A stretch of DNA of 63,681 nucleotides, the filler included. It is 8 parts of 8 records of this genome, joined end to end, with 100 filler letters (N's around TTAATTAATTAA, not from the genome) between each part and the next. Parts side by side here need not be neighbours in the genome. Positions count along the whole stretch, not along the records: positions 51,145 to 57,972 come from SRR31147125_53799; 7 more parts are not named here. One strand, given 5' to 3'. Positions within the stretch are counted from its first letter, which is position 1. Every line of letters starts with the position of its first letter. Position numbers and translations under genes: made by a program. Below are positions 51,145-57,972 of the stretch, one piece after another. Under the pieces are notes generated by a model, which was given only the letters and a program-made list of their open reading frames with translations, was not told where the DNA came from and searched no databases.

Positions 51145-51335
51145 TTTTTCTCCTAAATTGTTATTTTCCATAATACTCTCCTTAATAATTAAAAATTATA
51201 AATAATTTGTTTTTGTAGCGTAGAGGAGAAAGCAAATAATTATCTCACTCTATAAATAAACAAAAAATCAAATCTGTTATCTTTTGAAAACCTAGCATTA
51301 CTTTTTCTACGTTAGAAAAATATTTTTTGAATTGC

Positions 51336-51409
51336 GTATAATCTTCTGGAGATTGCCGACGTGCACATCGTTTCGATTTCATGTGCATGTTGGCAATCCT
51401 CTGTTAGCT
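51336..51409. repeat. attC-like hairpin site 1
   Basis: GTATAAT-N8-GATTGCCGACGTGCACAT...ATGTGCATGTTGGCAATC-N4-GTTAGCT; AAT in place of AAC. Confidence 0.7.
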
Positions 51410-51441
51410 GACGTAATTTTCGAAAGAAACCAATATCCTAC

Positions 51442-52287
51442 CTATTTTTTTGTTGCCTTTATCTTATTACAGAATTCCATTACCTTACGATCAACTTCAT
51501 CTGGATAACTATATTCTAACTTTTCACCAATATATTTCGCAAGCTTTCTAAATAAACTAGTTACCTTGTAAAACGCTTGCCAATTTTCTTCTATTCCTCC
51601 ACTTGCATATGATTGCTCAACTTCATTCCACACTTCAGGTGATAGGAGTTTTTTATATTTTTTACCAAGTGCACCTGTTTCTATTGACCAACCATTTTTA
51701 TATCCAATATGCCAATCAACTATTTTATGTAAAAATGAATACCTCAATATATTATCTAACATATACTTCGCAAACGGCAACTCATCTCTCCATAAATACT
51801 TGGGTATGTAATATGCATCCCACCAAAATTCATGTACTAATGCATTAAATTCCTCTTCTGTTGGTTTCTTAATTATAAATTCGCTATATGTACACTCAAT
51901 GGAATCTTCTATCTTTTTATCCTTATCTACTAGTATTTTATATCCATTATCATATCGATCAGTTTGAATTTTTTCTTGTTCTGTAATCTGAAAATCAATT
52001 CTTATACCATCTTCAAATAAAATTAATCTTGTAATCCATTCATTAGAAAAAGTAGAACGAGGCTTATATGGCCATCTAACCATAACTTTTCCAAAAGTAG
52101 AAAGCCAATTGTCATCCTTAACAAAGTACTGAATGTCTGAAACATATAATTCGATATCATAATCAGACAAAAAATCAACTTTATTATCCTTCTTAACTCG
52201 TGAACTAGTTAGTATTGCAGTTCTTACAATATCATTCCCTCTTGCCCACTCCGTAAATTGTGTTAATACTTGTTCTTCACTTCTCAT
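51442..52287 (-). CDS. Aminoglycoside 6-adenylyltransferase (AadK/AadE) family protein
   Basis: MRSEEQV...SSR...DFLSDYDIELYV, LILFEDGIRIDF, EFWW...YIPKYLWRDEL, GKKYKKLL, YSYP. Confidence 0.8.
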   Translation of the reverse strand: MRSEEQVLTQFTEWARGNDIVRTAILTSSRVKKDNKVDFLSDYDIELYVSDIQYFVKDDNWLSTFGKVMVRWPYKPRSTFSNEWITRLILFEDGIRIDFQITEQEKIQTDRYDNGYKILVDKDKKIEDSIECTYSEFIIKKPTEEEFNALVHEFWWDAYYIPKYLWRDELPFAKYMLDNILRYSFLHKIVDWHIGYKNGWSIETGALGKKYKKLLSPEVWNEVEQSYASGGIEENWQAFYKVTSLFRKLAKYIGEKLEYSYPDEVDRKVMEFCNKIKATKK

Positions 52288-52322
52288 CTGTGTCCCCCCT
52301 CACAAGATATCGGTTAGTATTC

Positions 52323-53204
52323 CTACAAGCTATCTTCTAATAAACTAAGATTCGCATAAAAGAACTGGTCATCAATCTTATTTCTCCTAACACACCAGGC
52401 TAGTTCACCTAAAGCATTATGGATTCTATATATAGGCAAGGTACCCTCGATATCAGGTAACTCTTCTATTGATTTATAACCGCTAATAAAAGACTCTTTC
52501 GATTTAGGATATACGTTCCATATATGCTCTGATATCTTAATGAAATCGATTGATGCTGATCCTCCACGTGATGATTCGAAATCAACTATACCTACCACTT
52601 TTCCCTCTTTAACAAGAATATTTCCAGGCCTATAATCAAAATGTACTAGACAAGGAATTTCTGATTTGAAACTCTCGTTCATTTCTAGTTCATAGAATTT
52701 TTCTAGTTTCTCCTTTAGCCCAGTGGATATATAACCATCAATTTCCAACAACCAGTTTTTATATCTTTTTCTTATACTCTCCCACCAGTCATTTTTCTTG
52801 TCATTTAGTTCAAACTTTTCTAATTTGATTCTATGTATTGATGCTAGAGCTTTTCCTATTTCGAAACTTTGCTCTGCACAAATTGGGAGGCTCATTGGAT
52901 CACCATCTATATATGACATTAATAATGCGCCAATATTTTTATTATCCCCATACCAGACATTAAGCAAATCAGGAACTAAAGGATTGCTTGATAATAACTC
53001 TAATGCTCTAGCTTCACGATAAACTTTCTCTCTATTAAATGGGATCTTCAAAACAACTTTATCGTTGTTCATTAATTTTAGTATTCTCACAGTAGAGCTA
53101 TATGACTCAGTAACTAATTCGACTGATTTAACATCTACATTGAAAATTTCAATTGCCTTATCGATTACGTCCATGTTGTTCTCCTTCAGTTGTATGATTT
53201 CCAA
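52323..53204 (-). CDS. Aminoglycoside phosphotransferase (APH/choline kinase-like) family protein
   Basis: VVLK, HFDYRPGNIL catalytic loop, VDFE. Confidence 0.82.
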   Translation of the reverse strand: MEIIQLKENNMDVIDKAIEIFNVDVKSVELVTESYSSTVRILKLMNNDKVVLKIPFNREKVYREARALELLSSNPLVPDLLNVWYGDNKNIGALLMSYIDGDPMSLPICAEQSFEIGKALASIHRIKLEKFELNDKKNDWWESIRKRYKNWLLEIDGYISTGLKEKLEKFYELEMNESFKSEIPCLVHFDYRPGNILVKEGKVVGIVDFESSRGGSASIDFIKISEHIWNVYPKSKESFISGYKSIEELPDIEGTLPIYRIHNALGELAWCVRRNKIDDQFFYANLSLLEDSL

Positions 53205-53278
53205 GACTTAAATTCTTGTCACTAATTCTTATCACACCATTAACATTGTGTATGAAACTTACTAAGGTAAAACTGTCC

Positions 53279-53329
53279 CTATAACGTTCCGCGAATATGC
53301 GAAGTGGAATCGCATATTCTCTGTTATAG
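53279..53329. repeat. attC-like hairpin site 2
   Basis: CTATAAC-GTTCCGC-GAATATGCGA-AGTGGAA-TCGCATATTC-TCT-GTTATAG. Confidence 0.85.
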
Positions 53330-53383
53330 GCAGTTTTTTCTTGGATGTTTGGGGAAAAACGGAGCCATGGATGGCGGAGTTTT

Positions 53384-54079
53384 CTATTTTAGCTTCATTA
53401 AGCATGAATCTACCCATTTCTCATCCATTTTTTTCAATCGGTTTTTCTTTAAGTTTTCCTTTATTATCCATTTAATATGTTTTCCTTGTAGATCAAATAG
53501 TTTTTCAAAAATGGTTTTACCTTCATTTGGAATTGCAGATATTGCAACACTCCAGCCATATCCTAAGGTTTTTCTTAAAGATGTGCTTTTTTTGTCAAGC
53601 TTTTCGTCATGAGCAAATTGCTTAGATATTTGTAGTAAGATATTAAGAACTGCTATATTTGATTCTCTATTGTCCAGTAATTTCGGCTCACAAAGGCCTG
53701 CGACAACAGCTCTTTGTTCAAGTTCACTTCCTTGGACAAAACATTCCAACTTTCCTAGAATGTCAGTCATTTTGTTTTCAGCTATTTCTTGAATCGATAT
53801 TGCTACCGATTCTCTGATTCTCCAGCTTTCATGATTGGCATATTGTTTTAAGAATGAAATGACGTCCTCTAAAGAATTCCGATTTTTAATTGAATATGAT
53901 AAAACTCCGCACATACCAACAAATTCTTCGGGAGAATTCTTTACAGTAGGTGTTATGTATTCAATACATTCTTTAATTTGTTCTTCATCTGCATTTTTTG
54001 AAAATTCATACAACAATTTTAAATTTCCTCGTGGCCCAGGCAAATTCGAATTCTCAATTAAATATTTAATGTCATACAT
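53384..54079 (-). CDS. HEAT-repeat-like hypothetical protein
   Basis: SNLPGPRGNL, ESWRIRESVA, LCEPKLL, LGYGWSV, WIIKENLKKNRL. Confidence 0.7.
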   Translation of the reverse strand: MYDIKYLIENSNLPGPRGNLKLLYEFSKNADEEQIKECIEYITPTVKNSPEEFVGMCGVLSYSIKNRNSLEDVISFLKQYANHESWRIRESVAISIQEIAENKMTDILGKLECFVQGSELEQRAVVAGLCEPKLLDNRESNIAVLNILLQISKQFAHDEKLDKKSTSLRKTLGYGWSVAISAIPNEGKTIFEKLFDLQGKHIKWIIKENLKKNRLKKMDEKWVDSCLMKLK

Positions 54080-54146
54080 TTATTTTCCTTTCTTTGTGCC
54101 ATGGATGGTGCAATGATAAATATAAAATTCTCCAAGAAAAAATTGC

Positions 54147-54224
54147 CTATAACGTCACGTGAGCTTACGACGTGGACATTCTTCCGAATTTATTGTCCAT
54201 GTCGTCGTAAGTTTGCAGTTAGGT
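54147..54224. repeat. attC-like hairpin site 3
   Basis: CTATAAC-GTCACGT-GAGCTTACGACGTGGACA...TGTCCATGTCGTCGTAAGTTT-GCA-GTTAGGT. Confidence 0.85.
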
Positions 54225-54356
54225 GTGTACTGAGTGACAACTTTCGAAACGTATAGATCTATGCTTAAGCCTTCTGTATGACTCCATCCATTCGTACAGT
54301 AAATCCAATCAGTTTTATAAATGTCTAGCCGTCAAGATAATATAAACGTAATGAAC

Positions 54357-54761
54357 TTAAATTCCGGATAATCTGGACTTAATACTGGTTACAATCAAAC
54401 TCCATTCCTCAAAGGAATTACTCTCTTCCCACAACTCAAATAGCTCTGAATTATCTTTCATCACTCTATCAATAGCTTTAATTGCACTTGGCACTAGAGT
54501 AGACACTTCCAAACTCTTCACTTTGCTAATAAATCCAGTAAATTCATCATTGTTAAAATCTGAATAATTATGCTCAGTTAAAACCATATCTAGGATTGCC
54601 GCAGAAATAAGTATTTCATGAGCCTCATCAACTTCTAAATACTCACTATCAAATCTACTAAATGCCTTCATCATGTACTCTACTGGGTTTTCCTCTACAA
54701 AATCGTACATGAAATCAGATGCATTATCATTCTCGAATATTCCAACTCCCCATGTTCCCAT
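54357..54761 (-). CDS. DUF4259-like protein
   Basis: MGTWGVGIFENDNASDF start with RBS GAAAGGAAGG; C-terminal SELFELWEE. Confidence 0.8.
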   Translation of the reverse strand: MGTWGVGIFENDNASDFMYDFVEENPVEYMMKAFSRFDSEYLEVDEAHEILISAAILDMVLTEHNYSDFNNDEFTGFISKVKSLEVSTLVPSAIKAIDRVMKDNSELFELWEESNSFEEWSLIVTSIKSRLSGI

Positions 54762-54889
54762 AGTAACCTTCCTTTCAAAACAAAATAATTTTATTAATAC
54801 TATATATTCCAATGCGTTACAATCCGTTATTCGTGATCTCTTTAACTTCAATTACATTATCAACTTTATCTTAGGTCGAATGAAATATA

Positions 54890-55381
54890 TTACATTCCCT
54901 CCATCATAATTTTTATGCTATCTCTTGAAAAACCAGTAGAAGTAGATGAGAATATTCCCATGACACCTCCAGCTATACATATTAAAATGAGAATCTTGAT
55001 AGTTAATTCAGAAACATTCTGACCTCCTAGTTCTTTTAACAAAATTGATATTTCTTTTGCTCCGTTCTTTATTAAAACCCAAATTAGAATAATAATCCAA
55101 ACGGCTACTACTGATATGTGAAATAAAGCAATCCATGGATTAAAGGGGGTTGGAAAAAGATAATACAAAAAGTAAGGAATTTTACCGAATATCATCCCTA
55201 GTCCAACAGCAATCCAAGGGACATTACCTACTAGAATAATACCTTTTGAAACACGTAAACCTATTTTCAAGTGTTCTCTATCTATTATTTTTGATTTACA
55301 TAAATAGTAGAAAAATCCTCCATATATTGATGTAGCTATAATTGAAATCACCCAAAAGAATTGTTGATAAATTACTAGCAT
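54890..55381 (-). CDS. Hypothetical four-TM membrane protein
   Basis: RBS AGGAGG; four hydrophobic segments. Confidence 0.7.
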   Translation of the reverse strand: MLVIYQQFFWVISIIATSIYGGFFYYLCKSKIIDREHLKIGLRVSKGIILVGNVPWIAVGLGMIFGKIPYFLYYLFPTPFNPWIALFHISVVAVWIIILIWVLIKNGAKEISILLKELGGQNVSELTIKILILICIAGGVMGIFSSTSTGFSRDSIKIMMEGM

Positions 55382-55423
55382 TAATTAACCTCCTAAGTCA
55401 TGTTAAAGTATCCTTTTATTTTC

Positions 55424-55520
55424 TCATAACGTCTACCGAATTGCCGACGTCTATTGGCTCAAAAATTACCCGCTTACCATAACCTTCAAGTCGATAGATG
55501 TTGGCAATTCGCTGTTAGAT
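55424..55520. repeat. attC-like hairpin site 4
   Basis: TCATAAC-GTCTACC-GAATTGCCGACGTCTATTG...CGATAGATGTTGGCAATTC-GCT-GTTAGAT. Confidence 0.85.
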
Positions 55521-55586
55521 GAAATATTCGAATGATCCCATTCCAACAAGCTAAAGAGTCACGCGACACACCTCATTGCTTATTCT

Positions 55587-56165
55587 TTATTGAGCATTAA
55601 GGAACAATATCATGAGATACTCACCGGCATAGGTACCATCACCATACTTCAATGCATGCTTCTTCGTCCCATGTATTTCAAATCCCAAACTCTTATACAT
55701 GCTTAAAGCTCGATTGTTATGAGTAACAACTTCCAATTCAAGTTGCTCTACCCCATTCCCTCTACTCCACTTTATACATTCTTCCATCATCGTTCTTCCG
55801 ATACCCAATCCCCAAAAAGATTTTCTCACAGATATACCTAATGCTGCTCGATGCAAATATCTTCGTTTACTCATAACTATTCCTACAGAACAGTTAGCTA
55901 CTATCTGTCCTTCAACTTCAGCTATCAAAAGTTGACTATTGGCATCATCTGCAAGGCTTCTTATAAAAGCTTCTTCTTGTTCTGCCGTGAAATCAAATTC
56001 CCCGGGTTCACGTGCCAAAAATCTCGTCTCACAGTCTACATCTTTCATATAATTGATTAGATTCTGTGCATCGCTCACTTCTGGGATTCTTACAATTAAC
56101 TGCTTATTGTCCTTCAATTCATACTTCTCTTTATAAGCTACTGTCTTAGCTTCGTGGTTACACAT
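55587..56165 (-). CDS. GNAT-family N-acetyltransferase
   Basis: LGISVRKSFWGLGIGR, LELEV...NNRALSMYKSLGF; RBS GGAGG. Confidence 0.9.
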   Translation of the reverse strand: MCNHEAKTVAYKEKYELKDNKQLIVRIPEVSDAQNLINYMKDVDCETRFLAREPGEFDFTAEQEEAFIRSLADDANSQLLIAEVEGQIVANCSVGIVMSKRRYLHRAALGISVRKSFWGLGIGRTMMEECIKWSRGNGVEQLELEVVTHNNRALSMYKSLGFEIHGTKKHALKYGDGTYAGEYLMILFLNAQ

Positions 56166-56281
56166 AAAAAATTCCTCCATTTAATATTGACTTCTTCAAA
56201 AATAATGTCACTAATATCGCTAATGTCGCCTTCCATGTAACCACCTCCTTCAAAATCATCTATATTAAAACGCTGAAAGCA

Positions 56282-56343
56282 TCATAACAGCATTGTTCTT
56301 TGCCCCTATTACCGAATGTGAATATGTCAACTCGCTGTTAGCA
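56282..56343. repeat. Degenerate attC-like site 5
   Basis: Right end CTC-GCT-GTTAGCA intact and left TCATAAC present, but the stem pairs poorly. Confidence 0.55.
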
Positions 56344-56362
56344 GACGTATATAATGACAACA

Positions 56363-56985
56363 TTAACCATTCTTTGATTCAAATAATGGCTTTTCTTCAT
56401 CACTAAGCTTAGGATATACTACTTTAAAATAGTAATTATTAGGATACTTATAACTGAAATACGTCAATAGTAAAGTTATAGGATAACCTGTGATCCAATT
56501 AATACCATACATAACTTCAAAAGAATCTAATCTTAACATAGTTATCTTTATAAATAACTTCATAGCATAAAAGATTCCCCAAATTAATGTCAATTTCCTT
56601 AGTGCAGGTCTACATTGATCATATATATTATCATTCTCAAAGAAACTCTTGGCTAATACCGAGACTAGGTCATTCTTAGTGAAATATGAAGCCAAAAAAA
56701 TTAGTGAATATAGAGTATTACTTACTAGTGGATAAATAAAAACAGTCATCGGATTATCTGATATAAATTCTATAAAAGAACTCACAAATAAACCTATCAT
56801 TCCAAAAATATTAAGTGGTGTAAATCTTCTATTAACTTTATAGACCGAAGCATACATTAGTAAACCAATAGTAAAACTAATAACAATAGCAACTCTAAAT
56901 GTAGTGTACTTAAAAAGATTGATGAAAACCAAAGCTGGTATAAAACTAAAAATCAATTCTTGATGCTTATAAAAAAACTCTTCAT
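56363..56985 (-). CDS. Membrane protein, VC0807/DUF3159-like (one-base frameshift in A run near 56975)
   Basis: RBS AAGGGG and ATG at 56985 rejoin the ORF if one T is added; LRKLTLIWG motif, several TM helices. Confidence 0.6.
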
Positions 56986-57020
56986 TGTAATTCCCCTTCC
57001 GAAACCGAATTATATATGTC

Positions 57021-57095
57021 TGTTAACGTCCCGTGAACTTACGACGTGGCCATCCTTCCAGTTAAAACGTCCATGTCGTAAGTTCGCTGTTAGGC
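57021..57095. repeat. attC-like hairpin site 6
   Basis: TGTTAAC-GTCCCGT-GAACTTACGACGTGG...CCATGTCGTAAGTTC-GCT-GTTAGGC. Confidence 0.88.
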
Positions 57096-57197
57096 GTAGT
57101 CTCACACGGAAGCTACTATAACCTATAGAATGAGCCACTTCCTCTTATCTTCATATCCTATATATGTATTATACAAGCCTCATTACATCTACGTTTA

Positions 57198-57584
57198 CTA
57201 GTCTAAATATGGATAGTTTTTTCTAACTTCCATCTGATACTCATCCAAACTCACCATCTTGTCTTCTCTAAAACGTATTACTGAAACTCCGTCAAATGTA
57301 TACTCAACTGAATCTACTTCGCAAACAAAATTCCAGATAGATGTTGCTACTTCAGAGTCATCATCGAAATACTGATTACTTATATCCCATGAAATTACAC
57401 GATTACCTTTAGAATGCCAACCGTCAAACCACTTCTCTGCTACATCAATACCAATATACATATCGCCTGTGCATTCTTTAACTATTACATCATGATTCAA
57501 AAGGGATAAAAATAATGTCTTATCCTGAGCAATCCAAGCTCTAAAATAATCTCTCGTTATTTGAGTTGCAACTTTACGATTCAT
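57198..57584 (-). CDS. SnoaL/NTF2-like protein
   Basis: YFRAW..QD, ECTGDMY.G, WNF.C, FDGVSVIRF...EY; RBS GGAGG. Confidence 0.8.
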   Translation of the reverse strand: MNRKVATQITRDYFRAWIAQDKTLFLSLLNHDVIVKECTGDMYIGIDVAEKWFDGWHSKGNRVISWDISNQYFDDDSEVATSIWNFVCEVDSVEYTFDGVSVIRFREDKMVSLDEYQMEVRKNYPYLD

Positions 57585-57633
57585 TGTACTCCTCCAAAAA
57601 AATCATTATTGTCTTAAACCAATGTGGGATTAC

Positions 57634-57705
57634 GCCTAACGTTCCGCTGTTATGCGAAGGGCAATTTGGGTGTAGCAAAGCGGAACCATATAGTCGTTGT
57701 TATAT
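57634..57705. repeat. attC-like site 7 (partly degenerate)
   Basis: GCCTAAC-GTTCCGC-TGTTATGCGAAG...GTC-GTT-GTTATAT; left arm resembles site 2. Confidence 0.65.
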
Positions 57706-57719
57706 GCTGTTGCAATTTT

Positions 57720-57972
57720 TTATGCACCCTTTTTAATTCTAATTTTTGTATAGATTGCCACGATAATCATTAAAGCTAATGTAAAAAGTGCTTTATATAG
57801 AGTGGTTGAACCTTCAAGTTCTGTTGTACCGAAATTGACTAAAACATCCCAAACAGCACCAATTCCCCAAAAAAACGGAAATATAATTAAAATATTATTA
57901 GTAATTCTAAATACTGATGCATACATAATTCCAACAAAAATTAGTTTTATAAACTCTGGTTGAAAACCTGCA
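57720..57972 (-). CDS. C-terminal part of a membrane protein (5' truncated)
   Basis: Hydrophobic ORF ending 14 nt before site 7. Confidence 0.6.

Follow-up and report, generated by a model that had tools for sequence, protein, structure and literature searches.

The 6828-bp contig at positions 51145–57972 (33% GC) is, with a probability of roughly 0.85, an interior segment of an integron-like gene-cassette array on the chromosome of a Clostridia-type bacterium. The analysed stretch, called the window here, comprises 63,681 bases in 8 contigs with N-linkers between them, and the array contig is separate from the other seven. It contains nine co-oriented, unrelated small genes with seven TAAC...GTTA elements between them, and consists of array only: neither a recombinase nor an attI site was found on it. 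Gene identities were taken from Pfam, and all genes lie on the minus strand:

51145–51174, minus strand: first codons of a tenth gene (MENNNLGEK...), with AAGGAGAG just ahead of it; cut off by the left contig end
51442–52287, minus strand: ANT(6)-like aminoglycoside nucleotidyltransferase, 281 aa (PF04439, 260 bits), Shine-Dalgarno motif GAGGG 9 nt upstream
52323–53174, minus strand: APH-family phosphotransferase (Pfam)
53384–54079, minus strand: 231-aa protein with weak HEAT-repeat matches, below the Pfam cut-off
54357–54761, minus strand: DUF4259 gene (Pfam, 107 bits), start and Shine-Dalgarno motif assigned
54890–55381, minus strand: membrane-protein ORF, 163 aa, no Pfam family assigned
55587–56165, minus strand: GNAT acetyltransferase (Pfam)
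56363–56985, minus strand: DUF3159 membrane-protein gene (Pfam), main ORF 56363–56956
57198–57584, minus strand: SnoaL_2-domain gene (Pfam)
57720–57972, minus strand: 3′ part of a membrane-protein gene, running off the right contig end

The initial annotation had described co-oriented, unrelated small genes, most with a strong ribosome-binding site, and this description holds: besides the common strand, a Shine-Dalgarno motif lies 6–9 nt ahead of an ATG in 7 of the 8 complete genes. The gene types that it had named (ANT(6), APH, HEAT, DUF4259, GNAT and SnoaL) were matched by Pfam, HEAT weakly. In the DUF3159 gene, the Shine-Dalgarno-preceded ATG (56985) and the main ORF are in different reading frames on either side of a T7 run, and the gene therefore carries an apparent frameshift. 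The ANT(6) and APH genes form one cassette, with a 35-nt gap and no site between them, as do the DUF4259 gene and the 163-aa membrane-protein gene, with a 125-nt gap and no recognisable site; the tenth gene is part of the next, distal cassette. None of the nine proteins recurs in any of the relatives' loci examined, and no cassette of the contig is therefore known from a second context. At its 57972 end the contig is overlapped by a 6.9 kb contig from the source run.

The seven elements were found where they had been placed, each starting with TAAC (TAAT in site 1) and ending with GTTA on the plus strand. The covariance model used to score them was trained chiefly on a related genome, with window sites 6, 1 and 3 also in the training set; the hairpin z-scores refer to DNA folds of the plus strand:

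51339–51406, plus strand: site 1, attC-like, 5′ box TAAT; 69 bits (training set), z −5.7
53282–53326, plus strand: site 2, short attC-like hairpin of 45 nt; 35 bits, E 8e-7 (not in training), z −3.3
54150–54221, plus strand: site 3, attC-like; 62 bits (training set), z −3.8
55427–55517, plus strand: site 4, attC-like, long-looped, 91 nt; 21 bits, E 0.007 (outside the training set), z −4.2
56285–56340, plus strand: site 5, half-decayed; no covariance-model match, z −0.2
57024–57092, plus strand: site 6, attC-like; 78 bits (training set), z −4.9
57637–57702, plus strand: site 7, divergent; 16 bits, E 0.11, 5′ box only, z −1.3

The z-scores of sites 1, 2, 3, 4 and 6 thus make 5 of the 7 sites clearly structured. 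An internal hairpin had been proposed for all seven elements; it is present in these five, absent from site 5 and atypical in site 7. Site 5 retains its 3′ half (L″/R″ side, ...GTCAACTCGCTGTTA) and forms no hairpin because its 5′ half is unrelated, and site 7 has a 5′ box and bulge (TAACGTTCCGC) canonical for the site family around a divergent inner part. Site 1 serves the ANT(6)–APH cassette, site 2 the HEAT-like gene, site 3 the DUF4259 and membrane-protein genes, site 4 GNAT and site 6 SnoaL. The covariance-model scan covered all 63,681 bases with filters off, and no match below E 4.5 turned up on the remaining seven contigs.

The site family is found in Clostridia. A degenerate core derived from sites 3 and 6 matched 8 genome stretches, of which 7 come with a Clostridia label, and 17 of the 31 genomes sampled from the Vallitaleaceae-level group had sites; these data indirectly support the low-GC Gram-positive-like host suggested by the initial annotation. 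In the complete 5.0 Mb Vallitaleaceae chromosome G001, whose consensus is most closely approached in the window by site 6 (nhmmer E 7e-19, profile from G001 only), a loose core motif occurred 146 times in the forward and 12 times in the reverse direction genome-wide (20 and 21 for the reversed-pattern control), with 133 of the 146 forward matches within 3,450,892–3,608,942. A profile search gave 187 same-strand sites across 166 kb in one array, with almost none elsewhere apart from one stray copy. The 184 cassettes of G001 have a median body of 640 bp, and the sense strand holds the longest ORF in 158 of them; they fall into 125 families, a Pfam scan of 150 ORFs yielded 84 Pfam families, and their cargo is GNAT-rich and includes an antitoxin.

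The site hairpin is conserved by covariation. In the site alignment, 98.2% of 2875 cells were paired, and compensatory changes were observed in 10 of 25 hairpin pairs (133 cells), a level reached by 0 of 500 shuffles, with at most 23 cells in slid controls. Pairing was 98.2% with the plus strand folded versus 85.0% with the gene strand folded, and G·T wobbles numbered 398, versus 19 A·C cells, which identifies the strand opposite the genes (the bottom strand) as the folded strand. In the window alone the strand preference is modest, with the plus strand clearly more stable only at site 1 (−16.7 versus −12.6 kcal/mol) and site 4 (−15.1 versus −12.1 kcal/mol). The internal loop of the site family is asymmetric, with 7 nt on the bottom-strand 5′ side versus 3 nt on the 3′ side, whereas canonical attC sites carry their extrahelical bases on the other arm. 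The sites are thus non-canonical, as had been proposed, combining TAAC/GTTA boxes with a loop unlike the canonical attC geometry, and no Rfam family matched the sites of the window, of G001 or of two further array-bearing genomes, G171 and G096.

Cassette boundaries coincide with the boxes. In 43 aligned copies of a repeated cassette, the conserved segment extends between the TAAC boxes of consecutive sites, and homology between repeated cassettes ends exactly at TAAC. The 8 nt after GTTA and the 8 nt before the next TAAC form a mean of 5.5 Watson-Crick pairs, with at least 6 pairs at 70 of 132 junctions, as compared with means of 3.7–3.95 and 7–13 such junctions in shifted controls. In the window, three of six junctions pair at 10 of 10 positions, namely 2→3 (one G·T), 5→6 (two G·T) and 6→7 (two G·T), and the other three show no complementarity. 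Together with the undispersed single-strand 187-site array in a Clostridia chromosome, these integron-like boundaries and flanks bear out the proposal of a cassette system. Intergenic hairpins recurring after genes might also be non-mobile repeated palindromes, such as REP-like elements, terminators or regulatory hairpins, lying between genes by chance, and site 2 is terminator-like by score, but on the strand opposite the genes. On the gene strand 0 of 7 sites scored as terminators, the folded strand is the non-transcribed one, the copies in G001 are limited to one array and one stray, and repeated-cassette homology stops at TAAC with flanks complementary across each cassette; we consider this explanation extremely unlikely. 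The REP or terminator reading is largely refuted by the restricted distribution in G001 and the lack of gene-strand terminators at all seven sites: the genome-wide dispersal that the initial annotation had named as evidence against cassettes was not found in G001, and recombinases are linked to such arrays.

The initial annotation had also placed a tyrosine recombinase outside the contig, and in relatives one recombinase family does stand at array heads in the predicted orientation. In G001 the gene lies at 3,611,930–3,612,940, co-directional with the cassettes and with housekeeping genes on its far side; in G424 and G417 a recombinase of the same family was found at the predicted head of window-type arrays. 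Homologues in G171 and G096 (49–52% identity) and on a Chryseobacterium plasmid (43% identity) head arrays whose sites differ in sequence, with boundary geometry unchanged. The sites of G171 and G096 are multi-stem structures of ~200 nt, versus the 70-nt hairpin of the window type, and the 7 nt versus 3 nt loop asymmetry is kept across these very different site sequences. At 80 metagenome recombinase loci, a geometry-only detector gave 26 co-directional matches in 158 kb downstream, as against 2 on the opposite strand there, 2 forward plus 1 reverse in 258 kb upstream and 0–2 in shuffles, and the covariance model matched downstream of the recombinase in three loci (L092, L157 and L124). The drafts G003 and G004 have sites and no recombinase homologue at E ≤ 1e-20. 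G429 has arrays, its recombinase-like genes being only 40%-identical multi-copy paralogues inside them. An adjoining recombinase is missing from several clusters of G417, G424 and G429. For the window array, the link to a recombinase is predicted from relatives with the same site family.

Directly downstream of the recombinase gene is an attI-like site composed of two or three direct repeats and a GTTA core. In 10 of 12 loci, 9–11 of the 12 nt that follow the GTT core agree with the attC flank of the first cassette, and 8 of these 10 loci reach at least 10 matches; 200 random anchors gave at least 10 matches once and at least 9 matches 12 times. The two loci that failed (G347 and G138) each have less than 900 nt downstream.

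The recombinase falls below every IntI model cut-off. The IntI-specific insertion was looked for in the array-head recombinase and is absent: alignment to TIGR02249 always broke into two pieces with model positions ~180–237 skipped, the comparison with VchIntIA gave 17 residues where IntI4 has 59, and all 27 aligned family members have a short segment in its place while the catalytic residues R, K, HxxR, H and Y are invariant in 27 of 27. In a quick tree with only three IntI sequences, the family formed a clade (support 96) that grouped with the IntI clade (99) at a support of 85, apart from XerC/D. The recombinase usually carries an N-terminal HARP-like module: HARP (PF07443) matched 10 of the 27 members at residues ~11–60, above the Pfam cut-off in only 2 of the 5 examined in detail, and the G096 enzyme lacks the module. 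The extra domain of IntI is held necessary for the specialised single-strand pathway in the abstract of PMC4792948. An enzyme that lacks this domain may work differently from IntI. Messier and Roy 2001 is reportedly a reference on the role of the domain.

An ordinary integron array (CALIN), its canonical IntI elsewhere or lost and the insertion-less recombinase incidental, would account for the boxes (TAAC...GTTA), the layout and the complementary flanks, all of which match canonical attC cassettes; clusters without a neighbouring recombinase occur in G417, G424 and G429, and passages of PMC4889954 and PMC9024848 report CALINs in Firmicutes (in the latter, "a few CALIN"). However, TIGR02249 scored above its cut-off in none of the 9 array-bearing genomes, the complete G001 included, an insertion-less recombinase stands at the array head beside an attI-like core that matches the first-cassette flank, and the loop asymmetry is constant, so that we regard this reading as very unlikely. 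It seems to us equally improbable that a Xer-type enzyme recombines the sites as duplex DNA, in the manner of dif/pdif, with arrays growing by double-strand site-specific recombination. The recombinase is nearest XerA by sequence (151 bits) and fold, its top NCBIfam match is NF040815, and the IntI domain associated with the single-strand pathway is absent from it; yet the G·T excess and compensatory covariation favour one folded strand, site sequences are wholly different between lineages with boxes and loop asymmetry retained, and all sites have one orientation, in contrast to the alternating arrangement of pdif modules.

These results point to an integron-like array in which each cassette pairs a promoterless gene with an attC-like site behind it, in gene sense (window minus strand) TTA...-RBS-ORF-[...TAAC-3 nt-stem...stem-7 nt-G], presumably transcribed from upstream. 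The site probably acts in folded, single-stranded form. The strand opposite the genes (window plus strand) forms a long imperfect hairpin with a TTCC 4-nt bulge beside the 5′ TAAC box, and the bulge, or the HARP-like module, may have a role in strand choice. A tyrosine recombinase, predicted to belong to the clade beside IntI that lacks the IntI-specific insertion and usually has the HARP-like module, would cut and join within the invariant TAAC/GTTA boxes, with cassettes excised as circles and reinserted at the attI-like site. For the window array, its gene would be expected to the right of the contig on the minus strand.

Among known systems, sedentary chromosomal integrons such as the Vibrio cholerae superintegron (VCR) offer a close likeness. 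G001 likewise has one large chromosomal array (187 sites/166 kb) of small, mostly promoterless, co-oriented, unrelated genes, with near-identical attC sites within the array, repeated cassettes, attC 3′ of the ORF with the crossover in a conserved AAC/GTT box, an R″ flank that is complementary to the cassette's own 5′ end, a better-folding bottom strand and GNAT-rich cargo with an antitoxin. Unlike superintegrons, the arrays here have Clostridia hosts, a strongly asymmetric internal loop and a recombinase that is transcribed towards the array rather than away from it, is below IntI cut-offs without the insertion, and usually has the HARP-like module. In Treponema denticola the integrase is co-directional with the cassettes and carries the IntI extra domain; integrons of this type share the co-directional layout with attI in between, and differ in that domain. 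XerA/XerC/XerD have the same catalytic residues and no insertion, and include the best sequence match (4a8e, 151 bits; Foldseek rank 1), but the recombinase stands at the head of a cassette array, next to a direct-repeat attI, and groups beside IntI; Xer-like paralogues are encoded separately at other places in the G001 genome. The DUF1874 motif, a multi-stem structure recurring in consecutive intergenic regions, was suspected by its authors to be an unusual attC, with no integrase seen, in a passage of Weinberg et al. 2017 (PMC5737381), and the ~200-nt sites of G171 and G096 are, by that description, of the same general kind. The window contig and the recombinase-free clusters resemble CALINs as defined by IntegronFinder, and some arrays may already stand in IntegronFinder papers under that name, but the arrays here can be assigned to one particular non-IntI recombinase that has an attI of its own. 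Clostridia arrays of this kind may help explain the apparent absence of integrons from Gram-positive bacteria.

The eight contigs of the window are joined by linkers (N/TTAATTAATTAA), and their G+C contents of 57, 55, 54, 43, 56, 38, 33 and 53% suggest a mixed bin; the neighbouring contigs are therefore uninformative on the host of the array, which occupies one contig (51145–57972; 6828 bp, 33% GC). Every gene of this contig lies on the − strand. Pfam agreed with the gene list of the initial annotation, giving ANT(6) (PF04439, 260 bits), APH, a weak HEAT match, DUF4259, GNAT, DUF3159 and SnoaL_2, together with one membrane protein outside any Pfam family and one truncated membrane protein. A Shine–Dalgarno motif precedes the ATG by 6–9 nt in seven of the eight complete genes, the exception being the DUF3159 gene, whose Shine–Dalgarno-preceded ATG (56985) is out of frame across a T7 run. 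The seven attC-like elements that had been proposed between these genes were all found in place, bordered by TAAC (TAAT in site 1) and GTTA. Their fold z-scores, computed for the + strand as DNA, were as follows.

AttC-like sites on the array contig (position in the initial annotation, strand used for the fold, description)
51336, + strand: site 1, TAAT border, z = −5.7 (significant)
53279, + strand: site 2, z = −3.3 (significant)
54147, + strand: site 3, z = −3.8 (significant)
55424, + strand: site 4, z = −4.2 (significant)
56282, + strand: site 5, unstructured, z = −0.2
57021, + strand: site 6, z = −4.9 (significant)
57634, + strand: site 7, barely structured, z = −1.3

The sites are 45–91 nt long in the window and reach about 200 nt in two relatives (G171 and G096); when the 5′ ends are aligned, six of the seven share the core TAACGTY..S.GA..T..CGA.G. 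The segment 56285–56985 is a decaying cassette, in which site 5 keeps its 3′ half only and the Shine–Dalgarno-preceded ATG of the DUF3159 gene is out of frame with the ORF. Between the genes of each two-gene cassette, inspection by eye gave nothing convincing as a remnant site.

The array contig carries seven sites and no recombinase and might be taken for a CALIN (at least two attC sites lacking a neighbouring integron integrase); both of its ends, however, are contig breaks. Of the sequencing runs searched, the probable source sample alone contained the contig. Among the contigs of this source run the array continues 9.1 kb leftward, with an overlap at the right end. A 15.9-kb contig of that run has one extra C at 52293 and one extra A at 57595, in homopolymer runs just upstream of ANT6 and SnoaL, respectively, within the ribosome-binding regions. 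No excision joint was seen among these contigs, which cannot show circles; the single apparent joint, from 54185 to 57069, proved to be a further 3/6-type site carried by a separate 6.9-kb contig. The array contig had no blastn match among plasmids, and Rfam gave no family for it or for the arrays of G171, G096 and the Vallitaleaceae chromosome described below (G001).

We searched species-representative genomes with the degenerate core and obtained eight stretches, seven of them in records labelled Clostridia, including four on a single complete 5.0-Mb Vallitaleaceae chromosome, G001 (OY762509.1). Across the whole of G001 a loose motif matched 146 times forward and 12 times in reverse, against 20 and 21 for a reversed-pattern control, and 133 of the forward matches fell between 3,450,892 and 3,608,942. 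A profile made from the motif matches delineated 187 same-strand sites over 166 kb. The same profile recovered sites 1, 2, 3, 4 and 6 in the window and none on its other contigs. Dispersal over the genome, as for REPs or terminators, had been named in advance as evidence against a cassette array; the G001 sites are instead confined to the array, apart from one stray copy. REP/BIME-type dispersed palindromes were accordingly rejected, as about 133 of the 146 forward matches lie in one array and the remainder is at control level. Terminators, which have a G+C-rich stem and then a T-run on the transcribed strand, were likewise rejected, none of the seven window sites scoring on the gene strand, and promoter-like matches were fewer than in shuffled sequences (24 vs 34.5 ± 5.2). 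One lone full-scoring site (82 bits; L086 763–830, chromosome position 1,724,262) is intergenic and far from the array, and could represent a cassette that strayed into a secondary site.

The training set of a covariance model comprised 106 distinct G001 sites, six more from a further three genomes, and sites 1, 3 and 6 of the window; the model was then applied to the entire window with filters off. The three training sites scored 62–78 bits; among the others, site 2 scored 35 bits and site 4 scored 21 bits, while site 7 was detected by its 5′ box only. Site 5 was missed, and nothing else in the window was better than E = 4.5. Window-type sites occur in 17 of 31 sampled genomes of G001's family, with 1–25 per genome, and form two or three single-strand clusters per genome in G417, G424 and G429.

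The alignment of 115 distinct sites showed a hairpin that is 98.2% paired on the + strand, opposite to the genes; the gene strand would be 85.0% paired, because 398 cells are G.T and 19 are A.C. Compensatory changes were found in 10 of 25 pairs (133 cells), a value equalled by 0 of 500 shuffles, and slid controls gave at most 23 cells. These data point to a substrate that would be single-stranded and would be the strand opposite the genes, as in integrons. Like attC sites, the elements are imperfect inverted repeats of variable sequence and length, with AAC/GTT boxes and a bottom-strand hairpin. Beside the 5′ TAAC the stem is interrupted by a conserved, asymmetric bulge: its 5′ side has 7 nt (GTYCCGY) and its 3′ side has 3 nt (GCT). 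Two positions per side can pair, which leaves TTCC unpaired. In Xer/dif (pdif) modules, the sites are short duplex dif-like sequences with XerC and XerD arms, and the modules they flank alternate in orientation. The present sites are instead hairpins of 45–200 nt in one orientation with a single-strand wobble asymmetry, and pdif modules were rejected.

The boundaries of the mobile unit were read from a G001 cassette present in 42–47 copies. Forty-three aligned copies are conserved from the TAAC of one site to the next TAAC, so that a single site, together with the DNA on its right-hand side (+ strand), makes up the mobile unit. Read in the gene sense, this unit (TTA...-ORF-attC-G) is the canonical integron cassette, and the crossover box corresponds to R′. 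The 8 nt after GTTA pair with the 8 nt before the next TAAC in G001, with a mean of 5.5 Watson–Crick pairs and six or more pairs at 70 of 132 junctions; five shifted pairings gave 7–13 such junctions and means of 3.7–3.95. In the window, all 10 positions are paired (G.T included) at junctions 2→3, 5→6 and 6→7; flank pairing is absent from junctions 1→2, 3→4 and 4→5, two of which span two-gene cassettes. The units thus have the make-up of cassettes, an ORF with a 3′ attC and a 5′ end complementary to its own R″ flank. The earlier cassette-array reading is supported and extended: an inner piece of an integron-like array lies in the window.

In total, G001 contains 184 cassettes in 125 families, and the median cassette body measures 640 bp. 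In 158 cassettes the longest ORF lies on the sense strand and in 14 on the other strand, and 12 have none of at least 50 aa. Among 150 ORFs, one representative per family, 84 Pfam families were found; the cargo includes eight GNATs, six methyltransferases and four NUDIX proteins, as well as kinases, deaminases, an antitoxin and an IS66 transposase. The repeated cassette (~630 bp, e.g., L025 9010–9640) has no ORF of at least 70 aa except a frame through the attC itself, and no Rfam match. When the nine proteins of the array contig were compared by tblastn with every locus retrieved, none matched at E ≤ 1e−5, and no shared cassette was therefore found.

The initial annotation had inferred a tyrosine recombinase outside the contig, and such an enzyme, lacking the IntI insertion, stands at array heads in relatives. 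For the window array, a HARP-type recombinase and an attI are predicted beyond 57972 on the right, on the − strand. In G001 a gene for a 336-aa tyrosine recombinase (3,611,930–3,612,940) lies 1.1 kb from the array end on the same strand as the cassette genes, with radical-SAM, pepF and riboflavin genes beyond it. The protein is the genome's top match to TIGR02249, aligned in two pieces (model positions 2–181 and 238–315) and below the cut-off. The array-head enzymes of relatives scored 187–229 bits against a cut-off of 265, always skipping model positions ~180–237, and canonical IntI (TIGR02249 over cut-off) was found in none of nine array-bearing genomes. Compared with solved structures, the recombinase aligned continuously with archaeal XerA (151 bits) and in two pieces with VchIntIA; the segment concerned has 17 residues in place of the 59 of IntI4. 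NCBIfam ranked NF040815 (XerA type) first, TIGR02249 second and XerC/D after these for three members. The enzymes tested in relatives thus lack the additional domain that characterizes IntI-family integrases.

In an alignment of 27 members, the R, K, HxxR, H and Y residues are invariant, all 27 have the short segment, and an N-terminal module of ~50 aa is conserved. Pfam HARP matches this module in 10 of the 27 (residues ~11–60), and reaches the Pfam cut-off in two of the five members examined in detail. AlphaFold predicted the module as a compact beta-beta-alpha-beta-beta-alpha fold (pLDDT 83–92) on a disordered linker. A fold search placed the whole-enzyme model closest to XerA and then VchIntIA; it was silent on the N-terminal module, because the whole model returned only tyrosine recombinases. 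A quick tree was made of 51 rows, 42 of them from the family, which had a support of 96; the IntI1/IntI2/Shewanella IntI clade had 99. These two and a single rhizobial recombinase were joined at 85, apart from XerD and XerC. On a Sinorhizobium fredii plasmid (L082 553–1995), a tyrosine recombinase with 41% identity lies directly upstream of an IS91-family transposase, and the same tree places it with IntI and the new family rather than with XerC/D.

Homologues at E ≤ 1e−40 were present in 20 of 401 sampled genomes of G001's class. In G424 and G417, recombinases with 64% and 58% identity lie exactly at the predicted head of one site cluster and in the predicted orientation; the other clusters of these two genomes have no recombinase. 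G429 has only 40%-identical multi-copy paralogues, within arrays. More generally, multi-copy, near-identical paralogues of 281–286 aa (40–44% identity) without the N-terminal module were observed in G024 (C1 944414–949202 and 1295314–1299470) and G429 (C4 403510, C5 304004 and others), some of the G429 copies being inside arrays, and may be part of a mobile element that targets arrays. G171 and G096 (49–52% identity) carry arrays of ~170–200-nt multi-stem repeats directly downstream and co-directional, with TAAC-2/3 nt-stem and stem-6/7 nt-GTTA borders and long flank complementarity. The attC-like sites at these two loci (L055 and L060) have several stems and a strongly conserved inner sequence; their R-box stems reach ~17–20 nt through the cassette flanks, and the sites are far more complex than a simple hairpin.

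The G001-type site profile had no match at 20 loci around homologous recombinases; the site sequences there differ, and only detectors of repeats and of geometry picked them up. The geometry-only detector gave co-directional sites downstream in G262, G023 and G002-C151; seven other homologues, whose contigs end <900 nt downstream, were uninformative for array detection. We further retrieved 80 metagenome loci with the family alignment. Downstream of the recombinases (158,122 bp) the geometry detector gave 26 co-directional hits and two on the opposite strand; upstream (257,966 bp) it found two forward and one reverse, with two and zero in shuffles. The covariance model placed correctly oriented sites downstream in three loci (L092, L157 and L124).

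A full-length homologue with 43% identity and the N-terminal module was also observed on a plasmid of Chryseobacterium sp. SNU WT5 (NZ_CP041688.1; L074 11971–22200), where PGAP names it 'site-specific tyrosine recombinase/integron integrase'. It stands at the head of a series of co-directional small genes and has an attI-like core. The attC-like sites here share the geometry of the others and have flanks that are complementary, and one cassette occurs in two copies. This suggests that the system extends to Bacteroidota and to a plasmid. On plasmid pHH1107 (FJ012881.1; L087 1110–3250), the truncated TnpF beside tet(X3) falls within the new clade, with 49% identity over residues 107–336. Short repeats occupy the tnpF–tet(X3) interval, together with a GTTA core that precedes the start codon by 24 nt. 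On the 3′ side of tet(X3) there is an incomplete site (TAAC-3 nt-stem...stem-AAC) that lacks a clean GTTA, and the flank match is 6/9. Judged from these remnants, tet(X3) may once have been a cassette of the recombinase system.

A site beside the integrase gene, as expected of attI, was found in relatives. At 13 of 16 homologue loci examined by eye, two or three direct repeats and then a GTTA core lie 60–170 nt past the stop codon; of the other three, G072 carries GTTC, the contig of G105 stops short of the region and none was seen in G138. The bases that follow the core in G001 (G|TTAGGGGAAATTGATAC) match, at 17 of 18 positions, the reverse complement of the sequence preceding the attC of the first cassette. 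The best downstream partner of the core, scored over 12 nt, reached at least 9 in 10 of 12 loci, a set that took in G353, G347 and G138, which have some downstream sequence although their contigs end <900 nt downstream.

Scores of the first-cassette flank against the attI-like core, by locus
11/12: G001, Chryseobacterium plasmid
10/12: G171, G096, G002-C151, G024, G072, G353
9/12: G262, G023
6/12: G347
3/12: G138

Runners-up scored 4–8, except in G072, which has a second full-scoring partner further along the array. Of 200 anchors placed at random in non-array DNA, one reached at least 10 and 12 reached at least 9. The mismatches are mostly A/G transitions, which give G.T on the bottom strand. 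The enzyme and the attI of the system have thus probably been identified in relatives.

A near-absence of integrons from Firmicutes has been called puzzling in surveys. Cury et al. 2016 (PMC4889954) describe Firmicutes without a complete integron and with some CALINs, and state that 'some unknown mechanism probably hinders' integrons; Néron et al. 2022 (PMC9024848) give one complete integron (Limnochorda pilosa) and a few CALINs; and Nemergut et al. 2008 kept only integrases with the additional domain and found 0 in 103 Firmicutes genomes. All three surveys require the IntI-specific domain. Smyshlyaev et al. 2021 mention an 'integron-like' recombinase subgroup whose insertion is 'not fully conserved', and Weinberg et al. 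2017 (PMC5737381) report a multi-stem motif in consecutive intergenic regions as a suspected unusual attC with no integrase. The open-access and bioRxiv literature gave no account of such Clostridia arrays, of this enzyme or of a HARP–recombinase fusion, and the IntegronFinder supplements may list some of the arrays as CALINs; in the one paper related to Vallitalea, 'integron' is a loose term for integrated conjugative plasmids.

We place the odds slightly above even (about 0.55) on the following reading: Clostridia and at least some Bacteroidota plasmids have integron-type gene-capture platforms of their own, whose recombinases form a sister clade of IntI in which the I2 insertion either was never present or has been lost, with strand choice by an N-terminal HARP-like structure-specific DNA-binding module together with a bulged attC. 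If so, tools that demand the IntI domain would not recognise these platforms as complete integrons, the old puzzle of why Gram-positive integrons are 'missing' would have an answer, and single-strand cassette recombination would be possible without an IntI-specific domain. The 166-kb, 187-cassette Clostridia array is tied to a recombinase without that domain, and smaller arrays occur in 17 of the 31 sampled relatives and on many metagenome contigs; the cargo of the window array includes ANT(6)-like and APH-like genes. Should the enzyme be active on folded sites, the arrays would form a large unrecognised reservoir of mobile cassettes in Gram-positive anaerobes, the extra domain would not be a universal need for attC-type recombination, and integron finders would have to include another integrase model. 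An enzyme with 64% identity is encoded by cultured relatives such as Petrocella atlantisensis, which makes the system open to direct tests.

In its cassettes and its folded strand the system parallels known integrons, and it departs from them at several points. Recombinase and cassettes run in one direction in G001, G424, G417, G171, G096 and the Chryseobacterium plasmid, where an integron has intI divergent from the cassettes and a Pc promoter; co-directional exceptions exist among known integrons. Canonical attC sites carry their extrahelical bases on the other arm, and the 7-vs-3-nt loop of the present sites appears to differ from the canonical geometry. The system is integron-like in its working, yet falls outside the definition of an integron by its integrase.
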